A stretch of 64,000 nucleotides of DNA from positions 1 through 64,000 of the forward strand of contig JAHJQN010000003.1 in NCBI GenBank assembly GCA_018819225.1. Reading direction: 5' to 3'. Position 1 is the stretch's first letter; each line of letters opens with the position of its first letter. Below the pieces are notes generated by a model, which saw only the letters and a program-made list of their open reading frames with translations, did not search any database and was not told the DNA's origin. This stretch comes from Candidatus Micrarchaeota archaeon (GTDB taxonomy: Archaea; Micrarchaeota; Micrarchaeia; Norongarragalinales; SBBD01). This document shows positions 11,927 to 29,664 of this stretch, in pieces. The position numbers and the translations under genes were made by a program.

Positions 11927-11936
11927 ATTTGATCAT

Positions 11937-12377
11937 CTATTTCAAAATTGACGTTCTTCTTGACTTCTCCTTTTCCTTCTTCGCGTTGGGGAATATCTCT
12001 TCCACAGCCTCGTTTCCGGTGCCTTCGCGCTCCCATTTAGCGTAGTAGTCCGCAAAGTTCTTAAGGGCGGGCGTGAAGCGATTCGCCATCACGTACTTGC
12101 CGGTCTCGTTGCTCAGCATCCCGAGCTGTACGCCGAAATCCAGGTAGCGCTTCCATGTGGCTGTTGGCAGGTCCTCGGGGCAATCCCGGAGCCTCAGGGC
12201 GCCCTTCTGCTTGACCAATAGCAGCGCCCGGCTGAAGCGGTAGGCTTGCGTCTCGTTGTCGAAGAAGAAGTTGGCGATCTCCTTGACAGTGAGCTGCTTC
12301 ATTTTCTCCTTGGCCGCAGGGCCTTCCCAGTCGAAGTAGTTGAAGGCCAATTCTATCCCCTTAGACACTGGTTCCAC
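11937..12377 (-). CDS. Hypothetical protein, possible winged-helix
   Basis: 146 aa, GC-rich coding pattern; 'TATWKRYLDFGVQLGML....GKY' wHTH-like. Confidence 0.55.
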   Translation of the reverse strand: MEPVSKGIELAFNYFDWEGPAAKEKMKQLTVKEIANFFFDNETQAYRFSRALLLVKQKGALRLRDCPEDLPTATWKRYLDFGVQLGMLSNETGKYVMANRFTPALKNFADYYAKWEREGTGNEAVEEIFPNAKKEKEKSRRTSILK

Positions 12378-12835
12378 TTAAGCATGTCGACTTCCCCCGT
12401 TCTGTCATCGACAAAGAACACGAAGCGGCAGTTGAAGGTCTTTCCGATTTTCCTCCAGTTCGTGGGCATCTTCCGAATCTTATTCAAATATTTTGCCTTG
12501 TGGCCTTTCCAAAAAGCCAGAGCGATCCTCCGATAATACGTTCTCCTGATTGCGTCTCCCTTGAACACGGGCTTTCTCGATTTTGGAGTATAATCCCTCC
12601 AGACGAGCTCCCCAAGCGTCTGCACAAACGAGCCATGCTCGCGGTTGTGCTTTCCCATGATTTCAATCACATACCTCCGTCCCTTGTGCGTGAATTCCAA
12701 ATCCCAGCCATGCGCGCCGGTGTGTGACGATCTCTTTTTCAAGTCCTCCTTCCAGCCTTTTTTCTTCAAAAACCTGATCAGGGGAGCGCCGATTTCTTGG
12801 AATTCTTTTGTCTCCCGTTTCTTCTTTCGTTTCAT
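12353..12835 (-). CDS. Basic PD-(D/E)XK-like protein
   Basis: 'FLKKKGW...HGWDLEF.....YVIEIMG' resembles the D...ExK core (K replaced by M); likely start MKRKKK at 12835. Confidence 0.55.
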   Translation of the reverse strand: MKRKKKRETKEFQEIGAPLIRFLKKKGWKEDLKKRSSHTGAHGWDLEFTHKGRRYVIEIMGKHNREHGSFVQTLGELVWRDYTPKSRKPVFKGDAIRRTYYRRIALAFWKGHKAKYLNKIRKMPTNWRKIGKTFNCRFVFFVDDRTGEVDMLKWNQCLRG

Positions 12836-13153
12836 AAATATGGTACATTTTTCATATATATATAAAACTATCGAATCGCTGTTTGTGGCAGAAGCCCGGA
12901 AAACACCCCCTCGTTTCCGCGTAGTGTTATTGTAGGCCATTCTCGGGCCATAGGGGCAAGCCTAAGTGATCCCGGAGGCCTGAAAAACGCCAAAGTAGGC
13001 GGGTTCCTAGAAATTTGTTTCATAGATATGAAACTGAGGAAATTGGAAAAAATGCGTTTCATAGATATGAAAATTAACAAAATAAACAGAGACTTTAAAC
13101 TATGTTCTTTGTATCGGATTTTACAATCCAAGAAGTTCACATAGATATGAACA
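12829..13153. promoter_or_regulatory. Cluster of palindromic sites TTTCATAGATATGAAA
   Basis: Near-perfect copies at 13017-13034 and 13056-13073; degenerate copies at 13136-13153 and 12829-12846, in an AT-rich intergenic region. Confidence 0.65.
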
Positions 13154-13180
13154 AAAAAGTAAATGGAAATATACTGTATT

Positions 13181-14368
13181 TTATTCCTCCTTAGTTTCAC
13201 TATGCGTTGCTTCGTGTTCTAATAACTCGTTAAGATATTGAAATTGCTGACGGCAGTACCTGCATCGGCCTTCTCGCTTTTGAGCATCCGCAACTATTGC
13301 GGACCAAAATAATTGATGTACGTATTTTGTAAGAATTGGGGTGAATTCCTCTTCGAGTTTATGGATGTTTCGAAAAATTGAATCACTAAAGAGACCTTTC
13401 TCCCGTTGGTCAGAATGGGGAATTTGTGATAATCGATCTCGGAGTGGGGGGTGAGAGTCGAAAATACCTCGTTTTTCATTTTCGAGTATTTGCTTCTTTA
13501 ATTCATCAGAATTTATCTTCATCAGATAATGCAAGTTAAATGAATCGTATACGTTTGTGAATTGCTGTTGTTGATTTGCAAGCTCCCAAATCCAGCGATA
13601 TCCGTGCTGAGTGAAATAGATCGAATACGCCGAATACTCTAATAACCCGTGATAGAATGGATTGTCGCCCGCAATCTGCCGCGCAATAAAATCAGCGCGT
13701 TTTTCCACTTGTCTGGAATGTAAGAAAAAAATGGCCGAAAAAATGCCTGAATAAATCCAAAATACAGCTGCACCAAGTAATGCATATAATGTGATGGCAA
13801 AATGAGGAGAATGTTCAAGAACCCTTAGAAAGAAATTTCTGGTTGATTCGATTGAGCGCACCAAATAGGCAAAAAACCCGCCGAGAATCGTATCATATCC
13901 GTAGAAATGAGCGAATTCATGAGCCAAGATAGCTCGAAATTCTTTTTCCTTTAGAATCCTCAAACTGATTAACCCGATATTCAGTTTCTTATTAATGAAC
14001 CCGCTTACAGAAATTTCGTCGAAAGGAGTTAATACCACTTGATTCGGGATAGGAACTCCTGTTTCAGTTGAAATGCTTTCAAGAAGTCGGAAAAGTCTTG
14101 GGTGATCATCCTTCGTTATAGGAACTTCGTGGTAGACTTCGCTCTTCTTCAGTACCACGTATCCAATAGGAAGAACAATGAACAAGAATGCATAGATATC
14201 GATATATAGATACATCAAATAGAACGCGAAGATAAAAACAATAAGAGCGAAAATTAGGCTAAAATATATTGATGCTTGGAGAACATTTGGAACGGAATAC
14301 TTGCCTTTTTCAATTTTGAAGCTTACTGTTCGTTTGGAAGGATTAATGTCAATTTGCAATCTCTTCAT
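13181..14368 (-). CDS. M48 (HtpX-like) membrane zinc metalloprotease with C-terminal C2H2 zinc finger
   Basis: TM helices, 'AILAHEFAH', 'E.RAD..A', 'SHPPL.DRL'; tail 'CRYC...F....ELLEHEATH'. Confidence 0.85.
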   Translation of the reverse strand: MKRLQIDINPSKRTVSFKIEKGKYSVPNVLQASIYFSLIFALIVFIFAFYLMYLYIDIYAFLFIVLPIGYVVLKKSEVYHEVPITKDDHPRLFRLLESISTETGVPIPNQVVLTPFDEISVSGFINKKLNIGLISLRILKEKEFRAILAHEFAHFYGYDTILGGFFAYLVRSIESTRNFFLRVLEHSPHFAITLYALLGAAVFWIYSGIFSAIFFLHSRQVEKRADFIARQIAGDNPFYHGLLEYSAYSIYFTQHGYRWIWELANQQQQFTNVYDSFNLHYLMKINSDELKKQILENEKRGIFDSHPPLRDRLSQIPHSDQREKGLFSDSIFRNIHKLEEEFTPILTKYVHQLFWSAIVADAQKREGRCRYCRQQFQYLNELLEHEATHSETKEE

Positions 14369-14438
14369 TTAAACCCCTTTCAAATAATATAATCAAAGTA
14401 AACAAAGACTTTTAACTTTGCTTACTTCTAATTAGCCC

Positions 14439-15644
14439 ATGAATGTCAGCCCCTTCCACTTGAGTCCTCCCCCAGCCTATTTCGTGGGCAGGAAGGAGGA
14501 GAAGAAGGCCTTCGAGCGTCTGGTGGAGAACGCCAAGGGAGGCAACCCCAGGAGCATGGCCGTCATTGGAGACCGGGGCATCGGCAAGACCGCGCTGTTG
14601 GCCGAATTCGAGCGCATCGCAATGCAGAAGGGGTGCGTGGTGGTGGGCCTCGAGCTTCACGAGGGCGTGAAGACGCTGGGCTACCTCTCCGTTGCGATTC
14701 TCGACGCCATGCAGAAGCAGCTGCGGGTGCTCTCGCTCAAGGAGAAGGCCAAGAACCGGCTGCTGGCCTTCTTCCAAAGAGTAGAAGTCAAATATCGGGA
14801 CATCGGGGTGTCGCTCAGGAAGCCGGAGGCCAAGGCAAAGCCCGAACTCGACCTCCACGGCGACCTAAAGGAGCTCTGGCGGCAGCTAAAGGAGGTGGGG
14901 GTTCCTGTCGTGGTGATCCAGATCGACGAGGCCGAGGGCTTGGAGCGCATTGACGGCGCGCTCACCTTCCTCAAGAACACGTTCCAGAAGCTCGGCCAAG
15001 ACAAGTGCAATTATGTGGCCGTGCTGGGCGGCAAGATCGACTTCTACAAGAAGGTGGAGGAGCTGCACTCCCCCATCGCGCGCTTCTTCCCGCAAACGGA
15101 GCTGAAGCCCCTTACAATAGAGGAAACGGCCGCTTATGTCCACGAGCTCATGGAGAAGCGGGGGAAAACGAAGGTTTCTGCTGATGCAATCCCCGCGATC
15201 CACGTGCTGAGCGACGGCAATCCCTTTGCCCTCAATGCCATCTGTGATGTGCTCTTTGAGAAAGCTCAGGAGGCCCACAAGACTATTGACAAGCCATTCC
15301 TCCAAATGTTCCGTCAGGAGTTGGTGAACAAGGCTGGATCCGGCCTTTTCCAGAAGCGGTACGTGCTGCTCAGCGATGTCGAGAAGGAAATATTGGAAGT
15401 GATCGCCCGGGAAAGCTCGAAGAAATGGCCCAACGGCGCGCCTTCCCTCCCCGAACTTTCAACTTCGGAAGTGGCAAAGCTGACCAAGAAATCGCTTCCC
15501 TACGCGAGCTCCTACCTTGACAGGCTTGCGGAAAAGGAGTGCCTCGTGAAGAAGGGCAGGGGCAAGTTCGCGCTCCCATACGTGCTGTTCGGGTGGTATG
15601 TGATGCTGGCGAGCGGGAGCTGGTCGAACGTTGGTAAAGGATAG
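14439..15644 (+). CDS. Archaeal AAA ATPase with C-terminal winged helix
   Basis: 'FVGRKEE', Walker A GDRGIGKT, Walker B IQIDEAE, 'SDGNPF', C-terminal 'SSYLDRLAEKECLVKKGRGKF'. Confidence 0.85.
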   Translation: MNVSPFHLSPPPAYFVGRKEEKKAFERLVENAKGGNPRSMAVIGDRGIGKTALLAEFERIAMQKGCVVVGLELHEGVKTLGYLSVAILDAMQKQLRVLSLKEKAKNRLLAFFQRVEVKYRDIGVSLRKPEAKAKPELDLHGDLKELWRQLKEVGVPVVVIQIDEAEGLERIDGALTFLKNTFQKLGQDKCNYVAVLGGKIDFYKKVEELHSPIARFFPQTELKPLTIEETAAYVHELMEKRGKTKVSADAIPAIHVLSDGNPFALNAICDVLFEKAQEAHKTIDKPFLQMFRQELVNKAGSGLFQKRYVLLSDVEKEILEVIARESSKKWPNGAPSLPELSTSEVAKLTKKSLPYASSYLDRLAEKECLVKKGRGKFALPYVLFGWYVMLASGSWSNVGKG

Positions 15645-15665
15645 ATTAGAAATTTTGGTGGTAAT

Positions 15666-15962
15666 ATGGAATTGACGGAAATTCAGAAAAAGAAAATATC
15701 TGATGAATACCCTGGCTTTATCGAATGGATTAAGGGAGATGGAAAAAATGAAAGAGAAGAGCACCTGGAGCATGGAAGAAAGATAAAAAGTTTAACCGAA
15801 CCGAAAAAAATCGACAAGCAAATCAAGGCGCTCAAAAAAGAAAGAACAAAGACGATGGAAAAACTGAGAAAAGAATATTGTTCCCAATGTCGAAAATACT
15901 ATCCTGAAAACCGATTCGATTCCAAAACATTCGACGACGGCTTCACGCAAATCGAAACATAG
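15666..15962 (+). CDS. Hypothetical protein (possibly truncated)
   Basis: 98 aa with GGTGGT SD-like motif upstream. Confidence 0.45.
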   Translation: MELTEIQKKKISDEYPGFIEWIKGDGKNEREEHLEHGRKIKSLTEPKKIDKQIKALKKERTKTMEKLRKEYCSQCRKYYPENRFDSKTFDDGFTQIET

Positions 15963-16082
15963 TGCCCAAAAGGCCACAAGCAGCCGGATTGAATCAAAAG
16001 GAAAAATTCCGCTGTTTGGACACTCAGAACGGATCGGAACAATTTGAGCGACGTCACCAAATCGGACAAGTCACCGAAAGAA

Positions 16083-18758
16083 ATGATTTCAATGAATGAA
16101 CTGAGCGAAGAAAAGAAACGGGTGCTTGAAAGCACAGGCAACGTGCTCGTCACCGCCAACCCCGGAACCGGAAAGACGACGCTGCTCGCCTACAAGTATT
16201 TGAAACTCCTTGAGAGTGGAGTAAAGCCCGAAGACATCCTCTGCCTTACCTTCACTGAAAAGGCCCGCAACGAGATGGAAACGCGAATCCTCAAGCTCCT
16301 GGAAGGAAAGAAACTGAAAGTCGAGTGGACGGACCTGAACATATTCACGTTCCACGAATACGCCCTCAACGCGATTGGCGAGGAAAACATCGTTTCGTCC
16401 AACCTCCTCCGCTACTGCATCTACCGCTACCTCAAGGAAAACGAGGTGCTCAACTACTCCGACAACTACCTTCTCACGGAAATCGTTCCCGGCATGGAAG
16501 GACACGTCAGCTACCTCAAAAGCTTCGGAATAACCCCCGACCAAATCCACCTCGAACAAGTCAAAGCCCAGATCACCGAAACCGAACGCTACACGAAACA
16601 AGAGCTGGACAAGTTCGCCGAATACTTCCTCAGCATCTACCAATACTACGAGGAATCCAAGCGCGGAAAGGGAATCGATTACGCGGACATGCTCCTCCGG
16701 TTCCTCGCCCTCCCAAAACACCGCGCATTCACATACGTTCTCGTGGACGAGCTGCAGGACGTCAACGACCTCGAAGCCACCATCGCGCTGAAGTCCGGCA
16801 AAACGTTCTTCGCAGTCGGCGACAAGAAACAGGCCATCTTCGGGTTCCAGGGCGGCTCCATCCTCAACTTCAAGAGATTCGGCGACTCCACCCAATTCAT
16901 CCTCGGCGACAACTACCGCTCCAGCAACGAAATCCTCGACTACGCAAAAGCCCTCTTTCTATCCAAAACAAAAAACCGGCCCGAACACGAAGCCGACCTC
17001 AACGCGCTAAAAAACCCGATCGCCAGCGCAGCCCAAAAACCCGAGGCGTACTCCATTGAGAAAGACAAGCTGTACCTTGCCGCATGCGAGCTTGCCAGAC
17101 AACTGCTTTCCGAAGGCCTCGAAACGGCCATCATCGCGCGCACCAACAGCCAAATCATGCGCGCCTCCAAAGAACTCAAGTCGCAGGGAATATTGCATTC
17201 TTCCACCTTCTTCGGAGGCTCCGGAACAGCGAAGGAACACGCCATACGGTTCCTGCGAAGCTTCTTCAGCGACGAACCGGAAGACTTGCGCGCGGCCATG
17301 TTCACGCCCTTCTTCCCCCTCCCCCTTTCGGACGCCTTTGCGCTCTCGGCATCAAAGACGCTGACCGTGGAAGACGTATGCGCGAAAAGCCCGGGGTACC
17401 GAAAGCTGCGGGAAGCCGCCAAAAACATTGAGGAAGTAAGCAAGGTGTTCAAGGAAGTGGTCTATCCGGTTGCGGTAACCTACGGAAAGGAATACCTGCT
17501 GGCCGCCATGACCGTGGAGAACGCGTTTGCCGAAGCCTTGCGGGTGCTTGACGAACTCAATCTTGAAAACGTCACCGCCTACCTCAAATCCTCGGACCTG
17601 CTGGCCGACGAAAGCGGGCAAAAGCAAAAACTTACTCTCACCACGGTGCACAAGGCCAAGGGATTGGAATTCGATGCCGTCATCTACCTACCCTCCAAAC
17701 CGCTGGGAAAAACGGACTTCCAGGACAACGTGGTGGAAGCCATCCTGAAAAACAAGGGAATCGACGCGACCGAAGAACTTGAGGAAGAACCCCTCCGAAT
17801 CGACTTCGTGGCCGTCACCCGCGCCAAAAAACGGTTGATCCTCCTTGCGCCGGACGTGGACGACTACCTCAACCCCTTCATCGAACACAAAACCATGGAC
17901 GTAAAAGGCGTCGGGGAAGGCGAATACTCCGAGCGCGCGAAAAAAGCCTACGATTTGTTCCTCTCGGGCGACACGGACAACGCAAAGCAATTGCTCGAAG
18001 ACAAGCAGCCGTGGCTCATGGACTTCGTGAAAAGCCACTTCGAAAAACTCAACCACCTATCCTATTCCAGCCTGCGAACCGACCCATACGCATACTTCAT
18101 TGACCGCATCCTCGGCATCCGGGAAACGTCCCCCGCGCTATTGCTCGGCTTGAAAGTTCATGCGCTTGCCGAACAAATCGTGAAAAACGAGAAACCTATT
18201 CTTGAAGAGGACGTAAAACCATTCGAGCAAGGCATACGGAACACCCTCACCCAAGTGAAAGCCGAATACCCCGAGGTCGTTGGAACCGAAGTAGATATTG
18301 ATCTTCCTCTAAAACGCCTGACGGCCACCGACACCGAAATGCGCTTCAAAGGCAAGATCGACGCCGTATTCCGCAACGCCGAAAACTATCTCCTACTCGA
18401 CTGGAAAACCGACAAGGACACCCGCCGCGATTCAGAGCACCGACGCCAGCTCGAAGTCTACAGGCGCGCCTACGCAGAACAAAACACCGTCCCATTGGAA
18501 AACATCAAAGTAGAAATCGGCTTCATCGGATTGCGCAAGAAAATCAACCTGGGCGTCATTGAAACAAAGCTTGACGCGGCCCAACCCAGGGCAAGCGCGT
18601 TCACCACCTTCCAAAAACACGCCAACGCCGTCCTCGCATGGAAACGGGATCCCGAACTCCTGCTCAAACAGCTCGCGCAAAAAGAGAGCGACGAACTGCT
18701 CTGGAAAAGCATCGTAGAACAATACCAACGGGAAGCCGATCCGGCGCCTTCCGAATAA
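16083..18758 (+). CDS. UvrD/Rep SF1 helicase with C-terminal PD-(D/E)XK nuclease (AddA/AdnB-like architecture)
   Basis: 'ANPGTGKT', 'VDELQD', 'VGDKKQAIFGFQG', 'NYRS', 'TVHKAKGLEF', 'VAVTRAK'; nuclease 'GKIDAV...LDWKT...QLEVY'; start at 16083 or 16092. Confidence 0.9.
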   Translation: MISMNELSEEKKRVLESTGNVLVTANPGTGKTTLLAYKYLKLLESGVKPEDILCLTFTEKARNEMETRILKLLEGKKLKVEWTDLNIFTFHEYALNAIGEENIVSSNLLRYCIYRYLKENEVLNYSDNYLLTEIVPGMEGHVSYLKSFGITPDQIHLEQVKAQITETERYTKQELDKFAEYFLSIYQYYEESKRGKGIDYADMLLRFLALPKHRAFTYVLVDELQDVNDLEATIALKSGKTFFAVGDKKQAIFGFQGGSILNFKRFGDSTQFILGDNYRSSNEILDYAKALFLSKTKNRPEHEADLNALKNPIASAAQKPEAYSIEKDKLYLAACELARQLLSEGLETAIIARTNSQIMRASKELKSQGILHSSTFFGGSGTAKEHAIRFLRSFFSDEPEDLRAAMFTPFFPLPLSDAFALSASKTLTVEDVCAKSPGYRKLREAAKNIEEVSKVFKEVVYPVAVTYGKEYLLAAMTVENAFAEALRVLDELNLENVTAYLKSSDLLADESGQKQKLTLTTVHKAKGLEFDAVIYLPSKPLGKTDFQDNVVEAILKNKGIDATEELEEEPLRIDFVAVTRAKKRLILLAPDVDDYLNPFIEHKTMDVKGVGEGEYSERAKKAYDLFLSGDTDNAKQLLEDKQPWLMDFVKSHFEKLNHLSYSSLRTDPYAYFIDRILGIRETSPALLLGLKVHALAEQIVKNEKPILEEDVKPFEQGIRNTLTQVKAEYPEVVGTEVDIDLPLKRLTATDTEMRFKGKIDAVFRNAENYLLLDWKTDKDTRRDSEHRRQLEVYRRAYAEQNTVPLENIKVEIGFIGLRKKINLGVIETKLDAAQPRASAFTTFQKHANAVLAWKRDPELLLKQLAQKESDELLWKSIVEQYQREADPAPSE

Positions 18759-18769
18759 CCGGCGGTAAC

Positions 18770-18927
18770 CCTCCTCCCCTCCCTGCATTCCGACCTTTTT
18801 CAAAAAAGGTCGATCAAAAAGTCGCTCGTCAAACACTCTTTGGCCGAGCTTTCTTCCCAAGAAAAGTCGTTGTGAACCCCTTCCCCCCTGCATTCAGACC
18901 GGGAGCTTGCGTGAATGTGGGAGAAGA
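18770..18927. repeat. Two degenerate copies of the family-1 core (CCCTGCATTC(C/A)GAC), each with a hairpin
   Basis: CCCTCCCTGCATTCCGAC then CGACCTTTTTCAAAAAAGGTCG (~18777-18812); CTTCCCCCCTGCATTCAGAC...TGAATGTGGGAGAAG (~18880-18927). Confidence 0.55.
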
Positions 18928-19066
18928 CGTGGGCTCGCCGTCGCTCGGCACGCGGATGGCAGGGCTCGCATCCACGGCCTTTTCCGGATAAATGATTTGC
19001 CGTGCGGTCGAACTATTGAGTAAGTAAGGCGCGGGTGCGATAACAGAATTTATAATCCGCGAGGAC

Positions 19067-19780
19067 GTGAAAGAAGTCATGGATATATTCGACAAGGCCT
19101 TGCTCGCGTGGCTCGCCGTCGGCATCGTCTTCTGGACCATCTATTCAGCGCTCGTTGTCCAAAACGCGGGATTCATTTACTACGTGATATGGGTAGCTGG
19201 ATTCGGAGGGTTCGGCTGGCTAAACCGGGAAAAAATTGCGGCCGCGATCCGCTCGCTTCCAGGCACCCGTTTTTCCAAGTTCGTTGCGCTAGGCTTCGGA
19301 ACCGTCTTGCTCGAGGAAACGTTTGCCGCCCTCCCGTACGCGATTTCCGAAGGGTTCACGATCATGCTGTACGCCCAACGAATACTGCAGCACTGGGCGT
19401 TCAACCTGTTTACGTTCACCGGATTCGTTTTCGGCTGGTACTTCCTGCTTTCCCGGTACGGCTATTCCGGCCGCGAAGTGTTTTTGCTGGCCGGAATCTG
19501 GGGGCTTTACGCCGAAAGCGTGATTTATTCGGTGTTCACGAATCCGCTGGCTTTCTTCATCTTCACACCGGTCATGGTGTTCACGTACGGGTTGATCGCA
19601 TGGCCGCCATTCCTTAGCTTCGGGGCAACCGGAAGCAGGCAACTGCATCCGGCGCTTAAGTATCCGCTCACGATGCTCGCATTATACCTTTTTTCGGTGG
19701 TGCCAATCCTCGTGCTCGGCGTTCTCCTGAATAATTACCCGTGGGCGTTCGCACCGTACATGACGTCTCCAACGGGCTGA
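19067..19780 (+). CDS. Multi-pass membrane protein (possibly related to CPBP/PrsW-type intramembrane proteins)
   Basis: About 7 hydrophobic helices, 'LLEET' and 'GLYAE' acidic residues within TMs. Confidence 0.65.
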   Translation: MKEVMDIFDKALLAWLAVGIVFWTIYSALVVQNAGFIYYVIWVAGFGGFGWLNREKIAAAIRSLPGTRFSKFVALGFGTVLLEETFAALPYAISEGFTIMLYAQRILQHWAFNLFTFTGFVFGWYFLLSRYGYSGREVFLLAGIWGLYAESVIYSVFTNPLAFFIFTPVMVFTYGLIAWPPFLSFGATGSRQLHPALKYPLTMLALYLFSVVPILVLGVLLNNYPWAFAPYMTSPTG

Positions 19781-19825
19781 ACCCCTAGAAGAATACGCGC
19801 ATACTACAAGAGACTACTATTTTTT

Positions 19826-20076
19826 TCAGTGATCCGCGTTCGTATTCACGGGTTTCAATGCCAGCGCTTTCACGGTGATCACATCGGCTTTCGTCTTCTT
19901 GCGCAGTTCTTCGCGCTTCGCCTCGTCGCGCAATTGCTGTTCAGCTGTCTTCTCGCCGCCCACCCACTTGTCCATCACCAAACAAGCCGTTAAGTCCCCG
20001 GTAACGTTTATGGCGGTACGGCTCATGTCCAGAATGCGGTCCACTCCAAAAATCAAGGCAATTCCAGCAGCGGGAA
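19826..20076 (-). pseudogene. Displaced 3' fragment of the dicarboxylate/amino-acid:cation symporter gene
   Basis: Encodes PAAGIALIFGVDRILDMSRT...ADVITVKA, near-identical to the C-terminus of 36645-38117, with its own tail and stop. Confidence 0.9.
19864..20076. repeat. 213-bp direct repeat, left copy
   Basis: 9 mismatches versus 36680-36892; 116-bp perfect block 19950-20065. Confidence 0.95.
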
Positions 20077-20138
20077 AAGGAAATAAACAAAATAGGGAAA
20101 CCATCCATGTTCTATTGCCTTAGAAGAAAACACAGAAA

Positions 20139-20224
20139 TATGACTACATATGGAAACGTATGACCACAATGTTTAAAAAGGAGCAAAGTGTAGTCATAAT
20201 ATGAAATTAGCACATATGACTACA
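20139..20224. promoter_or_regulatory. Four TATGAC(T/C)ACA boxes around a TATA-like element upstream of glgE
   Basis: Forward copies at 20139-20148, 20159-20168 and 20215-20224; inverted copy at 20189-20198; TTTAAAAA at 20172-20179. Confidence 0.75.
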
Positions 20225-20250
20225 AGTGAGAATTGAAAGGAACAGGACAA

Positions 20251-22605
20251 ATGGCTTTCATCGAAAAACAAAAACACGGGGGAATCACTTACTACTACCT
20301 AGCCCAATCCATTCGCGTTTCTCCTACAAAAGTGAAGAAGGTCAGGCGCTATTTGGGTAAAACGCTGCCTTCTGGAAAAAAAATCAAAGAGCTCACGACT
20401 CAACTCTCGCAAGGGAGAACAAGCACGAACATAAAGCAAGAAGTCAACATACCTGTTCAGATAACTCCCGAAACCAAGCCAAGAGCGCAAGAACTAAAGA
20501 CTCCTTTAAAAGAACATAAGGAATCAACGCCAAAGCTACCCGTTCCCTGCGTCATAGAAAACGTTTCCCCCGGAATGGATGAAGGACGATTTCCGGCAAA
20601 AAGCGTCATCGGAAAAGCGTTTCGCGTTGAAGCCGATGTGTTCTCACATGGCCATACCGTTCTTCAAGCGGTTCTTCTGCACCGAAGGAAAGGAGATAAG
20701 GAATGGAAAGAGGAGCGAATGGAAATCGTGGAAAACGACCGCTGGAAAGGAGTATTTACTCCTGAGGAGATAGGGGCATACGAATATGCCGTAAACGCAT
20801 GGGAGGATGAATTTCGTTCATGGCAAAAGTTGCTTGGGAAGAAGTGGACGTTGAAACAAGATGTAGTCATAGAAATAAACGTAGGCATACTGATGATTGA
20901 AGAGGCTATGAACGCAGTGGAAGGAGTAGTTCAGAGACAACTTAGAAGCTGGGCCAAACAAATCCGGAAAGAAAATGGGGGGAAGGCCGTAACTCTTGCG
21001 CTATCGGACGCGTTAGCGAAAAATATGAGTGCTTATTCGAGGAAACGCGTAACCCAGTCTCCAGTCATCGAACTATGGGTTGAATCAAAGGAAGCTGAAT
21101 TCAGTACTTGGTACGAGTTGTTCCCGCGTTCCACGTCGGACGACGGAACGCATGGAACGTTCAAGGATGTTGAAAAACGGCTTCCCCTGCTCAAGCACAT
21201 GCATTTCAACGTGCTATACCTTCCACCCATCCACCCCATCGGCGAAACGAATCGCAAAGGAAAGAACAATACGCTGCCTTGCGAACCCGGCGAACCCGGC
21301 AGTCCGTGGGCCATTGGCTCGCATCTCGGAGGCCATACCGCCATACACCCCCAGTTGGGAACACTTAAGGATTTCGATTCCCTTGTGAGAAAAGCGAGAG
21401 AGCAAGGCATTGAAGTGGCCCTAGATATGGCGTTCCAGTGCTCCGCGGATCATCCGTATATCAAGCAGCACCCGAAGTGGTTCAAGTGGAGGCCGGATGG
21501 AAGCATCCATCACGCGGAAAACCCGCCGAAGAAGTATGAGGACATCGTGCCGTTTGACTTTGATTCCGAAGACTGGAAGGCGTTATGGGAAGAGCTCAAG
21601 AACATCGTTCTATTTTGGATTGAAAAAGGAGTGCGTATTTTCCGAGTTGACAACCCGCACACCAAGCCTTTTCCGTTTTGGGAATGGTTGATCCGCACCA
21701 TCAAGAAAACGCATCCTGAAACCATTTTTCTGGCAGAAGCATTCACGCGACCGAAAGTCATGCATCGTCTCGCCAAAGCCGGTTTCACGCAATCGTATAC
21801 CTACTTTTCGTGGAGGAACACGAAATGGGAGCTCACGGAGTACGTGAAGGAATTGATGCGCCGGCCTGAATGCGATTACTTCCGCCCCCACTTCTGGCCG
21901 AACACGCCGGACATTTTGGCCCCCATTCTGCAAAAAGGAGGGAAGCCCGCGTTCAAGATTCGTTTGGCGTTGGCCGCCACCCTTTCATCGAACTACGGGG
22001 TTTACGGACCCGCATTCGAACTGGAAGAACATTTGGCGCTTCCGGAAAAAGAGGAGTATCAGGACTCGGAAAAGTACGAGATAAAGAAATGGGATTGGGG
22101 CCCCGAAAGCGGCATACGGGAATACATGGAGCGCATCAATCGGATACGCGTTGAAAACAAAGCGCTTCAGGAAACGTTCAATGCGCGCATGTTAGCAATA
22201 AACAACGACCACATCCTGACGTTCGAAAAACAAGAGACGGACGGATCGAACGCGTTATTGATCGCCATCTCGTTAGATCCCGTCAACCCGCAGAGCGGTT
22301 GGATGGAGTTGCCGGAATGGGCGAAGCCCGGAGAAGGAGAACGGATGGCCGTAGACGAACTGATCCATCAACGAAGCGTGGTGTGGGACGGGCGAAGCGC
22401 GTTCATCTCGTTGACGCCCGAAACCCCGGCACAGGTTTTGAGGATTCGGGGGGGCTTGAGGGTGCGGCGCATCCCCGAGGAAAAAAGGGCGGCGTTGCGA
22501 AAAACCCTAGAACGCGACCATTCAATGAAAGAAAACCAAGCAACGTCCACTGCATTAAAACAGGATATTAAAGGCGAAACGTCATTTGATTACTATATTT
22601 CGTGA
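20251..22605 (+). CDS. glgE: Alpha-1,4-glucan:maltose-1-phosphate maltosyltransferase GlgE (GH13_3) with extra N-terminal domain
   Basis: 'WYELFPRS', 'YLPPIHPIG..NRKGKNN', 'AENPPKKYEDI', 'FRVDNPHTKP', 'FLAEAFT', 'WPNTPDIL'; likely start MAFIEK at 20251. Confidence 0.95.
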   Translation: MAFIEKQKHGGITYYYLAQSIRVSPTKVKKVRRYLGKTLPSGKKIKELTTQLSQGRTSTNIKQEVNIPVQITPETKPRAQELKTPLKEHKESTPKLPVPCVIENVSPGMDEGRFPAKSVIGKAFRVEADVFSHGHTVLQAVLLHRRKGDKEWKEERMEIVENDRWKGVFTPEEIGAYEYAVNAWEDEFRSWQKLLGKKWTLKQDVVIEINVGILMIEEAMNAVEGVVQRQLRSWAKQIRKENGGKAVTLALSDALAKNMSAYSRKRVTQSPVIELWVESKEAEFSTWYELFPRSTSDDGTHGTFKDVEKRLPLLKHMHFNVLYLPPIHPIGETNRKGKNNTLPCEPGEPGSPWAIGSHLGGHTAIHPQLGTLKDFDSLVRKAREQGIEVALDMAFQCSADHPYIKQHPKWFKWRPDGSIHHAENPPKKYEDIVPFDFDSEDWKALWEELKNIVLFWIEKGVRIFRVDNPHTKPFPFWEWLIRTIKKTHPETIFLAEAFTRPKVMHRLAKAGFTQSYTYFSWRNTKWELTEYVKELMRRPECDYFRPHFWPNTPDILAPILQKGGKPAFKIRLALAATLSSNYGVYGPAFELEEHLALPEKEEYQDSEKYEIKKWDWGPESGIREYMERINRIRVENKALQETFNARMLAINNDHILTFEKQETDGSNALLIAISLDPVNPQSGWMELPEWAKPGEGERMAVDELIHQRSVVWDGRSAFISLTPETPAQVLRIRGGLRVRRIPEEKRAALRKTLERDHSMKENQATSTALKQDIKGETSFDYYIS

Positions 22606-22617
22606 GGTGTCTGAATA

Positions 22618-25600
22618 GTGGCTAACGATTCAACGTTGGAAAACGATCCGCTTTGGTTCAAGGATGCCGTGATCTACGAGGTGCACGTGAAAACGTTTTT
22701 CGACAGCGATGGTGACGGAATCGGCGACTTTAAAGGATTGATTGAAAAACTCGATTACCTGCGCGATTTGGGTGTCACCGCCCTCTGGCTATTGCCGTTT
22801 TATCCCTCGCCCATGAAAGACGACGGATACGATATTGCCGATTACTCGGGCGTGCACCCGACATTCGGATCCGTACGCGACTTCAAGGTATTGCTACGCG
22901 AAGCCCATCGAAAAGGAATTCGTGTCATCACGGAACTCGTGCTCAACCATACATCGGTCGAACACCCGTGGTTCAAGAAATCGCGGCGCGCGCCCAAGGA
23001 TTCGGAATGGCGCAATTTTTACGTGTGGAATGATTCGCCGGACAAGTATAAGGACGCGCGCATCATCTTCAAGGACTTCGAATCATCGAATTGGGCGTGG
23101 GATCCGGTAGCGAAATCGTATTATTGGCACCGGTTTTATTCCATGCAACCGGACCTGAACTTCAATTCGCCTCTCGTGGAAAAAGCCATTTTCAATGTCG
23201 TGGACTTTTGGTTCAAACTGGGCGTGGACGGCATGCGATTGGACGCCGTACCCTATCTTTTCGAGCGCGAAGACACGAATTGCGAAAACCTTCCGGAAAC
23301 GCATGCGTTCCTAAAAAAGCTGAGAGCGCGCATCGATAAAAAGTTCCCGAACCGCATGCTGCTGGCCGAAGCCAACCAATGGCCCACGGATGCCGTCAAC
23401 TATTTCGGTAAAGGCGACGAGTGCCACATGGCCTTCCACTTTCCGCTGATGACGCGCATGTTCATGTCCGTGCAGATGGAAGACCGGTTTCCGCTAATGG
23501 AAATCATTCGTCATACCCCTATCATTCCCGATACGTGCCAGTGGGCCGTCTTTTTGCGCAACCACGATGAACTCACGCTCGAAATGGTTACGGACGAAGA
23601 ACGCGATTACATGTACAGCATGTACGCCAAAGACCGCAAGGCCCGCATCAATCTAGGCATTCGCCGACGGCTCGCGCCATTACTGGAAAATGACCGCCGG
23701 AAAATCGAGCTCATGAACGTATTGTTGTTTACGCTGCCTGGAACGCCCGTCATCTACTACGGTGACGAAATCGGGATGGGCGACAACTATTTCCTGGGGG
23801 ATCGCGATGGCGTGCGGACGCCCATGCAATGGAATGCGGACACGAACGCAGGATTTTCAAAAGCCAATCCGCAACAAGTGTATTTGCCGCCCATCATCGA
23901 CCCCGAATACCATTACCAGACCATCAACGTCTCCAACCAGTCGCACCACCAAAACCTGTTGTGGTGGATGAAGAAAATGATTTCCATTCGCAAGCGGTTC
24001 AAGGCGTTCGGGAGAGGAAGCCTCCGTTTCTTGCAGAACGTCAACCCCAAAATTCTGGCATTCGTCCGAGAAATCGATGGCGAACGCCTGCTGGTGACCG
24101 TCAACTTGTCCCGACAACCGCAAACCGCGTCATTGGACTTGTCCCCATACGTTCAAGGCATTCCCCGCGAAGCATTCGGAAGCATCGAATTCCCGGCCAT
24201 TGAAAAAACACCCTACCCGCTCACGTTCGGTCCCTTCGGATACTATCTCTTCGTGCTCGAGAATCCGGACGTGAAATCCACTTCGACTCCCGCAAAAAAA
24301 ATCGTATTACCCACCGAACAAAGCTTGTGGAAGCCGACGCGCGGCGCGTTGAAACAAAAACTGGAGGAAAACGTGCTTCGGGATTTCCTGAAGAAGTGCC
24401 GATGGTTCGGCGGAAAAGGAAGAAAAATCGATTACGTGGACGTGCGAGAAGCCATTCCCATAGGAAAGATCAAGAAAGGCATTCAAGGCATCCTCGTGCT
24501 CGACGTGAATTACGTGGAAGGAGCACCCGAAACCTATCTGCTTCCAGCGGCATTCGCCCGAGAAGAAAAAGCGAAAGCCTTGGGAGAACAACACCCCGAA
24601 TCCGTGATCGCGCACATCAAAGCCGGGAAAGAGGAAGGCATCTTGTTTGATGCGTTATACGACGAAGCGTTCTGCCGGGAACTCTTGAAACTGGTTTCGA
24701 AAAATCGGGGGGAAATCGGATTGGGATCCAGAGGAAGAATGGACGGCTTTTCCCCGATGTCGCTTAAATCATTGGATGCCCTTTCTCCCGAGCTCCAGCC
24801 CTCCGTTTTATCCGCGGACCAAAGCAACACCTCCGTGGTTTATGGGAACAAACTCATCATCAAGTTCATCCGAAAAACGTCCCACGGACCAAATCCGGAA
24901 CTCGAGATCACGCGGTGGCTCACGAAAAACCGTTTCGCCTATTCGCCCGCCTTGCTGGGAGGCATCGTATACCGCGAGCGCAACTTGGAGGACGCTACCG
25001 TAGCCGTCCTGCAACCATTCATCAAAAACCAGGGATCGGCCTGGAAATTGTTTTCCGACGAGTTCAATCACTTCATGGACCGCGTGCTCCCCCAAAAAAC
25101 GCAGATGGAACAAAAAGAACAGCACGCGCCTTCATCCGACAACAAATTGAGCGGAGACATCAAGACGTTAGTGGGCCCGGTTTTCCTCGAACAAGTGAAA
25201 TTGTTGGGCGAACGCACCGGACAATTCCACCTGGCGCTTACCAGCGACGGGGAGGACGCGGATCTCGCCCCCGAACCCTTCGGGCACTGGGATTCCCTAT
25301 CCATTTCCCAATCCATGATTACGTACGCCGACCGCGTGTTCGAACTCGTCAATACGGCGTCCCCCCAAGATGAAAAAACCGCGAAGGAACTGAAATGGGT
25401 CCTTGAAAACCAGCAGGAAGTGCTGCGCCGATTCGAAGCCATTCGGGGCAAGAAGTTTGTGGCGTTGAAGACGCGCATCCACGGAGACTACCATTTGGGT
25501 CAAGTCCTGTTTACCGGAAACGACTACGTGATCATCGACTTCGAAGGCGAGCCGGCACGGCCGCTCGGTGAGCGACGTTTAAAACGTTCCCCGTTGCGGG

Positions 25601-25959
25601 ATGTCGCGGGAATGATTCGGTCGTTTCATTATGTGGCGTATTCCATGCTGCAATCGAACCTGTCTTTGAAGATGGAGGACCGTGCGTTTGCAGAACAATG
25701 GACGGAGCAATGGTTCCAAAGCGTCAAGCAAGCGTTTTTGGAATCGTACGAAAAAACCGTTGCGCGCACCGACATCGTTCCCAAGGACAAGAATACCTAC
25801 CGATTGCTGTTGGACTCGTTCCTGTTGGAAAAAGCGATTTACGAGTTGGGGTACGAGTTGAACAACCGACCGGAATGGGTGCTCGTTCCCGTGCGCGGCA
25901 TTCAAGCCATTCTAGGAAAACCATATGAATCCGCAGAAAAAAAAGAGGAACGCAAGTAG
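22618..25959 (+). CDS. treS: Trehalose synthase - maltokinase fusion (TreS-Mak/Pep2)
   Basis: 'RLDAVPYL', 'LLAEANQWP', 'FLRNHDELTLEMVTDEER'; C-terminal kinase 'DQSNTS', 'RIHGDYHLGQVL', 'IDFEGEP', 'EKAIYELGYELNNRP'. Confidence 0.96.
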   Translation: MANDSTLENDPLWFKDAVIYEVHVKTFFDSDGDGIGDFKGLIEKLDYLRDLGVTALWLLPFYPSPMKDDGYDIADYSGVHPTFGSVRDFKVLLREAHRKGIRVITELVLNHTSVEHPWFKKSRRAPKDSEWRNFYVWNDSPDKYKDARIIFKDFESSNWAWDPVAKSYYWHRFYSMQPDLNFNSPLVEKAIFNVVDFWFKLGVDGMRLDAVPYLFEREDTNCENLPETHAFLKKLRARIDKKFPNRMLLAEANQWPTDAVNYFGKGDECHMAFHFPLMTRMFMSVQMEDRFPLMEIIRHTPIIPDTCQWAVFLRNHDELTLEMVTDEERDYMYSMYAKDRKARINLGIRRRLAPLLENDRRKIELMNVLLFTLPGTPVIYYGDEIGMGDNYFLGDRDGVRTPMQWNADTNAGFSKANPQQVYLPPIIDPEYHYQTINVSNQSHHQNLLWWMKKMISIRKRFKAFGRGSLRFLQNVNPKILAFVREIDGERLLVTVNLSRQPQTASLDLSPYVQGIPREAFGSIEFPAIEKTPYPLTFGPFGYYLFVLENPDVKSTSTPAKKIVLPTEQSLWKPTRGALKQKLEENVLRDFLKKCRWFGGKGRKIDYVDVREAIPIGKIKKGIQGILVLDVNYVEGAPETYLLPAAFAREEKAKALGEQHPESVIAHIKAGKEEGILFDALYDEAFCRELLKLVSKNRGEIGLGSRGRMDGFSPMSLKSLDALSPELQPSVLSADQSNTSVVYGNKLIIKFIRKTSHGPNPELEITRWLTKNRFAYSPALLGGIVYRERNLEDATVAVLQPFIKNQGSAWKLFSDEFNHFMDRVLPQKTQMEQKEQHAPSSDNKLSGDIKTLVGPVFLEQVKLLGERTGQFHLALTSDGEDADLAPEPFGHWDSLSISQSMITYADRVFELVNTASPQDEKTAKELKWVLENQQEVLRRFEAIRGKKFVALKTRIHGDYHLGQVLFTGNDYVIIDFEGEPARPLGERRLKRSPLRDVAGMIRSFHYVAYSMLQSNLSLKMEDRAFAEQWTEQWFQSVKQAFLESYEKTVARTDIVPKDKNTYRLLLDSFLLEKAIYELGYELNNRPEWVLVPVRGIQAILGKPYESAEKKEERK

Positions 25960-27856
25960 CGTGGCATCGGAAGTGTGGGAGTACCGGCGACTTAGTGAAA
26001 TGGATGCCTATCTCTTCAAGGAAGGAACGCACAGTCGTTTGTATGAAAAATTCGGGGCCCACATCATGGAAGTGGACGGCACGTCCGGCACGAGTTTCGG
26101 GGTTTGGGCCCCGCACGCAAAAAAAGTTTCCATCATCGGTGATTTCAATGATTGGAACAAACAAGCTCACCCGCTGATCGCAGGCGACGAGGGCACGTGG
26201 GGCGGCTTCCTTCCCGGAGTCCCAAGGGGAGCGCGGTACAAGTATTTCATTGAGTCGCGCGTAGGCGGTTACCGGACCGATAAAGGCGATCCCTTCGCGT
26301 TTCAATGGGAGACGCCTCCGGCGACTGCATCCATCGTTCATTCCGATTCATACGAATGGAAGGACCGCGCGTGGATGAGCCAACGCCGGAAACGAAATGC
26401 GCATGACGCGCCCCTATCCATTTACGAGATGCATATGGGTTCATGGAAAAGCGGGGAAGGCGGCCGCGTGGAGTACCAAGTGCTGGCACCGTTGGTGGCA
26501 GATTACGTAAACGATTTGGGGTTTACGCACATCGAATTACTGCCGATCATGGAACACCCGTTCTACGGATCCTGGGGGTATCAAACCACGGGATTCTATG
26601 CGCCGACTGGCCGGTACGGGCGGCCTGAAGACTTGAAGTATTTCATCGATTACTTGCACCAGAAGAATATCGGCGTGTTTCTGGATTGGGTGCCCTCGCA
26701 TTTTCCGTCCGACGAACACGGCCTCGCATTTTTCGACGGCACGCATTTGTTCGAACCGGATGACGCGCGCCGCCGCATTCAGCCGGACTGGAACAGTTAT
26801 ACCTTTGATTTCACGAAAAAAGAGGTATGCTCGTATTTGACGAGCAACGCCTGTTTCTGGCTCGACCGATACCATGCCGATGGGCTGCGCGTGGACGCGG
26901 TCGCGTCCATGCTCTATTTGGATTACTCGCGTAAGCCCGGGGAATGGACGCCGAACGTGCGAGGAGGAAGAGAAAATTTGGAAGCCATCGACTTCTTAAA
27001 AAAAATGAATGAAACGGTCTACCGAGAATTTCCGGACGTCCAGATGACGGCGGAAGAGTCGACCGCTTGGCCCATGGTATCGCGGCCCACGTACGCAGGC
27101 GGACTGGGGTTCGGCATGAAATGGAACATGGGTTGGATGCACGATACGCTAACCTATTTTTCCAAAGACCCGGTGTTTCGTCCATTCCATCACGACCAAC
27201 TCACGTTTAGCATCTTGTACGCATTCTCTGAAAACTTTATTCTCCCGTTATCCCACGATGAAGTCGTGTACGGAAAAGGATCTCTGTTGAACAAGATGCC
27301 CAAAGACGAATGGCAAAAATTGGCTAACATGCGTTTGTTACTCGCCTATTTTTTTGCGCACCCCGGAAAAAAACTGTTGTTCATGGGAGGCGAGTTCGGG
27401 CAATGGACGGAGTGGTCGCATGAAAAAAAACTGGACTGGAATCTATTGGAGCAGTCTCCTCACCAGGGCATTCGACGACTCACCCAAGATTTGGCGCGCG
27501 CCTACCGCAACGAACCATCCCTTCATGAAAGGGATTTCGAACCCGACGGATTCGAATGGGTCGAATGGTGGGACCGCCAAGCCGGAGTGGTCAGTTTTCT
27601 GAGGAAAACGCATGACGCGAAGGAAGATGTATTGGTGGTACTGAACTTCACGCCGGTGCCTCGCACCGCGTACCCCATTCATGTTAAACGAAAAGGAGTC
27701 TGGAAAGAAATACTGAATACGGATTCCGCTGATTATGGCGGGAGCGGTCAAGGCAATTTGGGGCAGGTTAAAACACGAGAGCACGCGCAAAAAGGCATTG
27801 TCCTGAGTTTGACACTTCCGCCGCTGGGCGCCATATTCTTGAAATGCGGGGAATGA
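25925..27856 (+). CDS. glgB: 1,4-alpha-glucan branching enzyme (GH13_9)
   Basis: 'EHPFYGSWGYQ', 'DWVPSHF', 'GLRVDAVASMLY', 'AEEST', 'LSHDEVV'. Confidence 0.96.
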   Translation: MNPQKKKRNASSVASEVWEYRRLSEMDAYLFKEGTHSRLYEKFGAHIMEVDGTSGTSFGVWAPHAKKVSIIGDFNDWNKQAHPLIAGDEGTWGGFLPGVPRGARYKYFIESRVGGYRTDKGDPFAFQWETPPATASIVHSDSYEWKDRAWMSQRRKRNAHDAPLSIYEMHMGSWKSGEGGRVEYQVLAPLVADYVNDLGFTHIELLPIMEHPFYGSWGYQTTGFYAPTGRYGRPEDLKYFIDYLHQKNIGVFLDWVPSHFPSDEHGLAFFDGTHLFEPDDARRRIQPDWNSYTFDFTKKEVCSYLTSNACFWLDRYHADGLRVDAVASMLYLDYSRKPGEWTPNVRGGRENLEAIDFLKKMNETVYREFPDVQMTAEESTAWPMVSRPTYAGGLGFGMKWNMGWMHDTLTYFSKDPVFRPFHHDQLTFSILYAFSENFILPLSHDEVVYGKGSLLNKMPKDEWQKLANMRLLLAYFFAHPGKKLLFMGGEFGQWTEWSHEKKLDWNLLEQSPHQGIRRLTQDLARAYRNEPSLHERDFEPDGFEWVEWWDRQAGVVSFLRKTHDAKEDVLVVLNFTPVPRTAYPIHVKRKGVWKEILNTDSADYGGSGQGNLGQVKTREHAQKGIVLSLTLPPLGAIFLKCGE

Positions 27857-29664
27857 ATCGAATGCTTCACGGACCCCTGTTGAATAACGACGAAGCGCGT
27901 TTCAATGTATGGGCGCCCCATCGAAACCATGTGGCGGTGCGCGTTAAGGACGACGTGCAATCCATGAAACGGGAATACAACGGCATTTGGAGTACTACCT
28001 TGTCCGGAGCGCGAATGGGAACGCGCTATTCCTTTTTGTTGGATGAAACATTGGACCGCCCGGATCCCGCATCGCATTTCCAGCCGGAAGGCGTTCACCA
28101 ATCATCGGAACTCGTTGACCATAACGTGTTCGAATGGGATGACGATCATTGGCGAGGTCCGAATCCCGCGTCCCTCATAATATACGAACTGCATGTGGGC
28201 ACGTTTACTCGAAAAGGAACCTTCGATGGCGTGATCCGCAGATTACGCGAACTCAAGGAACTCGGCATTACTGCTTTGGAGCTCATGCCCGTATCCCCGT
28301 TTCCAGGAACCCGCAATTGGGGGTACGATGGCGTATACCCTTACGCGGTTCAGCATTCGTACGGAGGACCACATGGATTGAAAAGGCTCGTCAACGCGGC
28401 CCATCAAGAAAACATCGCCGTCCTATTAGACGTGGTGTACAACCATTTGGGTCCGGAAGGCAATTATTTCGCGGATTTCGGACCCTACTTTACGGAACGT
28501 TATTCCACGCCGTGGGGAAAGGCCATCGACTTCGACGGAAAAAACGCTCAACCCGTACGCGCGTATTTCATTCAGAATGCCTTGCATTGGATGGCGCATT
28601 ATCGAATGGATGGACTGCGGTTGGATGCCATTCACGCGATTTTCGACCGGAGCCGAAAACACGTGCTCAAGGAACTCGCAGAAGAAGTAACGCGGTATGA
28701 GAAAAAAAGCGGCCGCCAACGCATACTCATCGCCGAAAGCGATTTGAATGATTCGAAAGTCGTGCGCCCATGGACCCAAAAAGGGTATGGAATCAATGAG
28801 CAGTGGCTGAATGATTTTCATCACAGCATCCATGGACTCCTCACGCATGAAACGCAGGGCTACTACGAGGATTTTAAGGGACTGGACTCCCTCGTCAAGT
28901 GCCTGAATGAAGGATTCGTTTATTCGGGCCAATACTCGCGGTACCGAAAGCGCCATCACGGCAATGCGACCCATGATATGTCACCTCGGCACTTTGTTTC
29001 ATTTATCCAAAGCCATGACGAAGTCGGCAATCGGGCTCTCGGAGAACGCTTGTCGTCCCTGGTTTCATTTCCAGTACTGAAGGTCGCGGCCAGCCTATTG
29101 TTTTTTTCGCCATACACGCCCATGTTGTTTATGGGAGAAGAGTATGGCGAACGACATCCGTTCCAGTATTTTATCAGCCATTCGGATGCCCGTTTGATTC
29201 AGGCGGTTCGCAGCGGCCGTAAGAAAGAATTTTCAGCCTTTCGATGGAAAGACCGCTTGGCGGATCCACAAGATCCTAAAACCTTCCTTCGTTCAATACT
29301 CAGTGAAACCAAACCATTCACGGGAAAGGCGCGTCATTTAAGGGAAGCGTATCAAACGCTCTCTTCCCTCAGAAAAACCATTCCGGCGCTATCGGATCCC
29401 AAACGCCGGTATACCCATGCGTGGGCGGACAAAAAAAACAAGGTGTTGTACCTGAGTCGCAAGGGATACCGGTCTCAGGTACTAGCGATTTTTCACTTCG
29501 GGCGCCCGCCCATAACCATTCATTTACCGTTCCGGGGCGAACGATGGCAAAGGGTCTGGGACTCCGAAAATAATCAAAGGAAAGCAAACCCGCTAGCTCC
29601 CGACAAGGCCATACGCTTAAAGAACATGCATTCGATCCTATTGGAAAAGGTGAACAACGAATGA
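27844..29664 (+). CDS. treZ: Malto-oligosyltrehalose trehalohydrolase
   Basis: 'RNWGYDGV', 'DVVYNHLGPEGNY', 'LRLDAIHAI', 'LIAESD', 'QSHDEVGNRALGER'. Confidence 0.95.
   Translation: MRGMNRMLHGPLLNNDEARFNVWAPHRNHVAVRVKDDVQSMKREYNGIWSTTLSGARMGTRYSFLLDETLDRPDPASHFQPEGVHQSSELVDHNVFEWDDDHWRGPNPASLIIYELHVGTFTRKGTFDGVIRRLRELKELGITALELMPVSPFPGTRNWGYDGVYPYAVQHSYGGPHGLKRLVNAAHQENIAVLLDVVYNHLGPEGNYFADFGPYFTERYSTPWGKAIDFDGKNAQPVRAYFIQNALHWMAHYRMDGLRLDAIHAIFDRSRKHVLKELAEEVTRYEKKSGRQRILIAESDLNDSKVVRPWTQKGYGINEQWLNDFHHSIHGLLTHETQGYYEDFKGLDSLVKCLNEGFVYSGQYSRYRKRHHGNATHDMSPRHFVSFIQSHDEVGNRALGERLSSLVSFPVLKVAASLLFFSPYTPMLFMGEEYGERHPFQYFISHSDARLIQAVRSGRKKEFSAFRWKDRLADPQDPKTFLRSILSETKPFTGKARHLREAYQTLSSLRKTIPALSDPKRRYTHAWADKKNKVLYLSRKGYRSQVLAIFHFGRPPITIHLPFRGERWQRVWDSENNQRKANPLAPDKAIRLKNMHSILLEKVNNE

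Follow-up and report, generated by a model that had tools for sequence, protein, structure and literature searches.

The window examined here comprises 64,000 nucleotides (nt) of Candidatus Micrarchaeota archaeon (assembly GCA_018819225.1, contig JAHJQN010000003.1, positions 1 to 64,000) and contains a gene in which the maltosyltransferase GlgE, an enzyme of bacterial type, is preceded by an N-terminal module shared with archaeal Fic proteins. The gene is a stop-free open reading frame on the forward strand, extending from the ATG at 20251 to 22605; its product is a fusion protein of 784 residues that begins MAFIEKQKHGGITYYYLAQSIRVSPTKVKKVRRYLGKTLP, and it is a real and unique chimera. The seven-gene GlgE/TreS-Mak/GlgB operon to which it belongs is very probably transcribed from a Fic-type promoter, with GlgE made as a fusion protein. 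A fuller reading, in which a Fic-type expression unit was joined to a bacterial-type glgE and the N-terminal module (hereafter the head) serves as a feedback regulator, is proposed with about even confidence. The fusion protein is divided into the following parts.

20251 to 20418, + strand: Fic-type N-terminal module, residues 1-56 (homology, AlphaFold2 model)
20419 to 20550, + strand: linker, residues 57-100 (K/T/P/E/Q-rich, with a 17-codon internal repeat)
20551 to 22605, + strand: GlgE body (maltosyltransferase, GH13), residues 101-784 (Pfam, solved structures, bacterial homologues)

The extent of the enzyme is set by the Pfam domain GlgE_dom_N_S (PF11896), which begins at residue 101 and runs to residue 278 (161.8 bits, cut-off 25), followed by the GH13 core (PF00128) and by GLGE_C (PF21702), which reaches residue 732 (44.9 bits, cut-off 27). 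The match to solved GlgE structures (3ZSS, 4U2Y and others) is confined to residues 102-731, at 525 bits, and the bacterial matches to the body (47-56% identity) all begin at about residue 100 of the fusion, the best genomic ones coming from diverse bacteria at 47-52%. The closest homologues are bacterial GlgEs of about 660 residues, 52-56% identical, which begin M-x(5-8)-RRVVIENV; the nine or so native residues before VIENV are replaced in the fusion by ...STPKLPVPC. Since native GlgE has only about nine codons before the VIENV strand, some 90-100 residues of the fusion are extra. The preliminary description of this locus had put the surplus before the normal GlgE start at about 95 residues, an estimate borne out by Pfam, the solved structures and the homologues of about 660 residues, which place it at about 100.

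The motifs FRVDNPHTKPF, LAEAFTRPKVM and FWPNTPDIL are conserved in pairwise alignment. The Asp of RVDNPH is presumably the nucleophile, the Glu of AEAF the acid/base and the Asp of NTPD the third Asp of the GH13 family. Domain content and motifs place the fusion protein in the GlgE family, and maltosyl transfer from maltose-1-phosphate is its predicted activity. No NCBIfam model matched the protein as GlgE, and nothing real was obtained there for the head. The GlgE body was not found in the 40 closest relatives searched, and GlgE_dom_N_S exceeds the Pfam cut-off in this genome alone among the 401 genomes of the phylum sampled. A side feature of the body is an insertion of about 40 residues (IPEEKRAALRKTLERDHSMKENQATSTALKQDIK, window 22470-22580) placed after domain C and ahead of the conserved E-x-DFDY tail at the C-terminus; the homologues run directly from RxRLKRE to TDFDYF without it.

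Residues 1-56 are homologous, at 46-62% identity, to the N-terminal module of class-II-like Fic proteins of about 300 residues from related DPANN, Micrarchaeota-labelled archaea. A HMMER (phmmer) search with residues 1-100 against 1.84 billion representatives matched short archaeal proteins at their N-termini (E = 7.5e-9 to 6e-4), and the full-length proteins among these matches carry a Fic domain. Comparison of the whole fusion with 40 related genomes yielded open frames of about 300 residues, themselves Fic proteins, in which the first 54 residues share 46-57% identity with the head; the identity is 57% to the Fic protein of a genome of the same family (G008) and 62% to protein P0136. A profile built from nine Fic orthologues matches residues 1-56 at 68 bits (E = 7e-23 in a two-sequence search), and the homology stops at residue 56. 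The head satisfies the pattern M-x-[FY]-[IV]-E-K ... G ... Y-Y-Y-L ... R ... K-[VW]-K-K-x-R-x-[FY]-L-G.

The head profile gave 146 matches (E <= 0.001) in 5.8 billion proteins. The best 120 of the 146 are nearly all archaeal Fic proteins of 287-320 residues, the named ones labelled Micrarchaeota, Diapherotrites, Aenigmarchaeota, Nanoarchaeota and others; within the same best 120 the fusion is the sole protein with a glycoside-hydrolase body, and among the 5.8 billion no further protein of GlgE length was found with the head. The derivation of the head from the N-terminal module of archaeal Fic proteins, first suggested by eye, is thus upheld by the phmmer search, the Fic frames of the relatives and the profile search. 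A likeness to IS1634-type transposases, suggested at the same time, was not recovered, as no transposase occurs among the 15 phmmer matches or the best 120 of the 146 profile matches; the comparison was made by sequence, with which a remote relationship remains compatible.

The Fic domain itself is absent from the fusion, which shows no PF02661 match and no HPFx[D/E]GN[G/K]R motif. No Fic remnants were found after codon 56 in any frame, a Fic-family search of contig 1 gave only a chance match of 12.6 bits on the opposite strand, and no synteny was detected between the Fic loci of the relatives and the window. Residues 1-100 of the fusion matched no Pfam family, and neither did 22 members of the head family, apart from one stray Arm-DNA-bind_5 match (E = 0.09) in one of the 22, a sequence-profile search of the PDB with the head returned chance-level matches only, and the literature searched yielded no description of the head.

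Four in-frame start candidates precede the GlgE body, namely TTG 20233, ATG 20251, GTG 20332 (codon 28) and TTG 20353 (codon 35); the next is ATG 20575 (codon 109), with none usable in between. As the stretch between codons 35 and 109 is devoid of starts and M109 lies within the conserved first strand of GlgE, a complete GlgE could not be made without at least the linker. ATG 20251 is taken as the true start because the homologous Fic proteins begin MAF.... The Shine-Dalgarno-like AGGA ahead of it is only moderate, which lends something to the explanation that the extension is not made at all, either because translation begins at M109 or some non-canonical codon or because the assembly has produced a chimeric junction. 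That explanation is most improbable, as a start at M109 would drop the VIENVSPG strand common to all homologues, while the first 100 codons are open in DNA of 44% guanine-plus-cytosine (GC) content with a homologous head in frame. The identical 784-residue product is, moreover, called in two assemblies, ENA (423 kb contig) and Logan (16.7 kb contig), and no repeat was found at the junction between head and GlgE.

The region upstream of the fusion was compared with that of type-1 (MAFIEKQ...) Fic genes from the genomes G026, G011, G032, G013 and G008 and from the metagenomic sequence L139. The type-1 Fic promoters follow a common order: box A (TATGRCYACA), box B (the inverse of A), box C (TATGACCACA or TATGGACACA), then, 3 nt further, the TATA box (TTTAAATA or TTTATATA), box D (TGTAGYCATA) and the ATG. 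The ATG lies 2-5 nt past box D in most of these genes, which is leaderless archaeal spacing, and about 30 nt past it in G032. The corresponding elements of the fusion gene are listed below.

20139 to 20148, + strand: box A, TATGACTACA, distal and operator-like; at the same position upstream of Fic orthologues
20159 to 20168, + strand: box C, TATGACCACA, next to the TATA box; the Fic promoters of G026, G011 and G013 carry the identical TATGACCACA 3 nt ahead of TATA
20172 to 20179, + strand: TATA-like box TTTAAAAA; lines up with TTTAAATA / TTTATATA in the promoters of Fic orthologues
20189 to 20198, - strand: box D, proximal, TGTAGTCATA as read on the + strand; between TATA and the ancestral start position, with sequence and spacing as in G026
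20201 to 20236, + strand: upstream open reading frame (uORF) of 11 codons; its ATG is exactly at the leaderless start position of the Fic orthologues (compared with L106-L110 and L139)
20215 to 20224, + strand: box E, one more exact TATGACTACA, within the leader insertion (sequence)
20862 to 20871, - strand: fifth box, an exact TATGACTACA inside the coding sequence of glgE, 610 nt downstream of its start

Three exact boxes and one with a single mismatch are thus present upstream of the fusion. Genome-wide (1.37 Mb), the 10-mer TATGACTACA has four exact copies, all of them at the glgE locus; the copy inside the coding region may be a chance match or an auxiliary site. Between the fusion and Fic orthologues of other families, box C, TATA, box D and ATG are identically spaced, and the ATG at 20201 stands exactly 21 nt after the TATA box, the TATA-to-ATG distance found in G026. 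An insertion of about 50 nt (20201-20250), which holds the uORF, box E and the Shine-Dalgarno-like AGGA, lies between the promoter and the ATG of the head. The layout of boxes, TATA and start shared with the Fic orthologues argues that the archaeal promoter, operators, start and head were inherited as one block. The genome encodes a TATA-binding protein and an archaeal small-subunit ribosomal RNA, and both the head (44% GC) and the region upstream (33%) are AT-richer than the genome as a whole (50.5%). The earlier suggestion that an imported operon had been fused to a native promoter and start is well supported by a promoter and start collinear with those of the Fic orthologues and by a bacterial-type body present in one of the 401 genomes of the phylum.

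Of the 68 genomes of the order, 42 contained the head module in a profile search. Among 32 head genes, 21 are preceded, within the 100 nt upstream, by an exact repeat of 10 nt or more, as against 2.4% of 701 control upstream regions, and these repeats, about 10 nt in length, flank the TATA box. At least six subtypes of the head were distinguished, each with its own box (GTGCCCCCTAA; GTGGACACAA; TACCCTTACAT / ATGTAAGGGTA; TTACATTTT / AAAATGTAA; GTAGTCACC; TATGRCYACA). The arms of palindromic boxes change together between genomes, TACCCTTACAT/ATGTAAGGGTA being replaced by TACCCCTACAT/ATGTAGGGGTA and TTACAT..ATGTAA by CACACAT..ATGTGTG, as seen upstream of L124, L130, L131, L132 and L015:1021-1950:+. 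The boxes are kept where the head has partners other than Fic, which include a nucleotidyltransferase of 152 residues (G063, L123:868-1323:+), proteins of about 580 residues ending in a PEP-utilizer mobile domain (G035 and G039; genes L116:1-1677:- and L117:1-1677:-), with GTGGACACAA direct repeats around TATA, and a stand-alone form of 58 residues. Since the head is the sole protein feature common to the box-bearing genes, autoregulation encoded in cis would be the most economical reading, and the head is a probable autoregulatory DNA-binding domain.

The same boxes might instead be read in trans by a resident Fic protein or an unrelated regulator, the head of GlgE being irrelevant or competing. 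Three Fic genes with related heads are indeed present on contig 2 of this genome, and one of them, L014, has GTAGTCATA and TGTAGTCACC around its TATA box, similar to the glgE boxes. Against this, the sequence of the box follows the subtype of the cis-encoded head across at least six subtypes and no type-1 head other than that of GlgE exists in this genome, so that reading in trans is considered decidedly unlikely. As a separate observation, the boxes of the L014 Fic gene (contig 2, about 329450-329500; upstream of L014:1024-1962:+) make cross-talk with the glgE head conceivable.

The AlphaFold2 model of the head (predicted local distance difference test score 81) contains three antiparallel strands (residues 2-9, 12-22 and 28-36) and a helix (42-58), a predicted beta-beta-beta-alpha fold. 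The preliminary description had taken the head for a putative DNA-binding fold, and a Foldseek search of the PDB supplied no significant match for it (best E 0.22). A wide VIA-align search with the model reached a best Z of 4.6, not above background; 3jtz (Z 4.5, root-mean-square deviation 3.0, 55 residues aligned) and 6sy0 (Z 4.1) were tied with many unrelated chains, and Arm-type and AP2 domains are among the many ties at Z of about 4-4.5. A structural search of the ESM-Atlas matched residues 1-58 to archaeal clusters of Fic, nucleotidyltransferase and ProRS-family proteins at their N-termini; these matches serve as leads only.

The linker of 44 residues is of low complexity, rich in K, T, P, E and Q, and contains neither an in-frame start nor a stop; from its composition it is inferred to be disordered. 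A weak tandem repeat of 17 codons (20436-20454 against 20487-20505, QEVNIPVQITPETKPRA / QELKTPLKEHKESTPKL) suggests that it grew by duplication. No similarity to the Fic genes was found for the linker in any frame, and a profile of Fic residues 57-115 also fails to match it.

In the mechanism proposed here, the Fic-type unit (boxes, TATA, start and the first 56 codons) would have been joined in frame, through the low-complexity linker, to a horizontally acquired glgE lacking its first nine or so codons. Carried on a dimeric GlgE, the head would still bind the TATGACTACA boxes around TATA and the start site, and the abundance of GlgE would feed back negatively on the whole operon. The GlgE homodimer is formed chiefly by contacts of the N domain, and constructs of the enzyme with an N-terminal tag have been expressed and crystallised (PMC4663749). 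Such a dimer could allow two heads to face paired boxes. That the head is a sequence-specific DNA-binding domain which still binds these boxes, so that GlgE abundance represses the operon, is plausible from comparison of the sequences, at a little below an even chance.

Several points weigh against this mechanism. The case for DNA binding by the head is one of comparative genomics, the fold searches having given no significant match; the genomes compared are kin, and the counts given above are not independent samples. Mean identity of the fusion head to the Fic orthologues is 50%, as against 66% among the orthologues themselves, and four invariant positions are altered, among them V18A and K19Q of strand 2. 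The box B seen in the relatives has no counterpart here, and the 50-nt insertion with its uORF parts the promoter from the start, either of which could mean decay. The fusion, moreover, is carried by one genome only. Most of these points, namely the faster divergence of the head with its four changed positions, the lost box, the insertion behind the promoter and the occurrence in a single genome, together with a linker without traceable ancestry, would also be expected if only the promoter and start had been captured, the head being a tolerated and decaying passenger that no longer binds DNA or matters. This is somewhat unlikely, as the head retains 19 of the 23 columns invariant in eight Fic orthologues and all residues conserved across the family (R22, R32, G36, Y14, Y16, K27 and K30), the frame of 56 codons is intact, and three exact boxes and one near-exact box stand upstream, an extra box having been gained rather than lost.

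Two extensions of the feedback mechanism were also considered. The fusion might be a metabolite-responsive trigger enzyme in which maltose-1-phosphate or glucan modulates binding of the head; this is improbable at present, and if true it would couple expression of the operon to flux through a pathway with a toxic intermediate. An equally speculative proposal, likewise improbable, is that head and boxes form a portable cassette that plugs foreign or housekeeping genes into DPANN transcription and has here given rise to a true trigger enzyme.

The operon lies within a repeat-bounded unit, the remaining features of which are as follows.

22618 to 36627, + strand: rest of the co-directional alpha-glucan/trehalose operon, with TreS-Mak, GlgB, two GH13 amylase-family proteins, GH57 and MalQ (Pfam)
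19864 to 20076, - strand: orphan remnant of the 3' end of a sodium:dicarboxylate symporter gene, forming the left member of a pair of 213-nt direct repeats and the left boundary of the 16.8-kb unit

The left copy of the repeat is 96% identical to 36680-36892, and the translated symporter fragment shares 95% identity with residues 410-483 encoded by the intact gene (36645-38117); the two symporter gene ends differ in their last 12 or so codons. The 213-nt repeats bracket the unit 20077-36679, inside which the Fic-type promoter and the head are found; this suggests that the fusion may predate its arrival in this genome. The fusion may have arisen in a related archaeon, recombination at the symporter gene then bringing the completed cassette into this genome. 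No integrase was found within the glucan unit, and the symporter gene was not found in 20 relatives (E <= 1e-20), so no 'empty site' could be recovered. With a GC content of 51% against 50.5% for the genome, the island is no longer distinguished. A role of the boxes as recombination sites at the island ends was rejected, since the same boxes occur at Fic promoters in genomes where no GlgE was found. The left flank (window 1-19800) is a mosaic of defence-type genes whose GC content varies sharply, among them an Eco57I-like restriction-modification fusion, a helix-turn-helix (HTH)-IrrE protein, an AAA/BrxC-like ATPase and a UvrD-PD-(D/E)XK helicase-nuclease.

Bifunctional enzyme-regulators with a fused DNA-binding domain include BirA, PutA and NadR. 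The architecture of the fusion, in which a metabolic enzyme carries a head that putatively binds DNA and boxes lie at the enzyme's own operon, would by analogy fit such trigger enzymes. With the head of the archaeal class-II-like Fic proteins of the DPANN it shares the homology over residues 1-56, the same fold prediction and the boxes around TATA before the start; unlike in these proteins, the Fic domain is replaced by a bacterial-type GlgE, and an inserted leader of 50 nt adds a uORF and a further box. Similarly, it resembles bacterial GlgE (GH13_3; Streptomyces coelicolor GlgEI, 3ZSS; mycobacterial 4U33 / 5CGM) in that all five domains align over residues 102-731, in the RVDNPH, AEAFT and NTPD motifs and in an operon with TreS-Mak and GlgB, and differs from it in the 100 extra N-terminal residues, the insertion of about 40 residues before the DFDY tail and the archaeal host.

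Among regulators described earlier, the Fic protein CccR of Yersinia pseudotuberculosis is reported to repress the promoter of its own gene by means of an attached DNA-binding domain (PMC9755527); a similar logic is proposed for the ancestral Fic unit of the archaea. In CccR the DNA-binding domain is C-terminal and the enzyme is Fic, unlike in the fusion, and no similarity to the archaeal head was seen. In archaeal RbkR, an enzyme is reported to be joined to a DNA-binding domain whose binding is tuned by substrate and product (PMC5397151). Systems of the RbkR type employ winged helix-turn-helix or ribbon-helix-helix domains, occur in many lineages and have validated binding, whereas the fusion is a chimera of a single genome with a putative beta-sheet head.

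The new elements are GlgE as a partner of the head and the capture of a bacterial operon, at the sole GlgE-pathway locus found in the sampled phylum. A metabolic enzyme thereby joins the partners of a small, widespread archaeal head which, with its cis-linked and co-varying boxes, is a good candidate for a new DNA-binding fold, and one protein with four 10-nt boxes makes a compact and testable system. The locus offers an example, at the level of individual bases, of how an archaeon with a reduced genome could bring a bacterial operon to expression by means of a resident promoter, operators and start codon, and thus bears on how gene transfers between domains overcome incompatible signals for transcription and translation.

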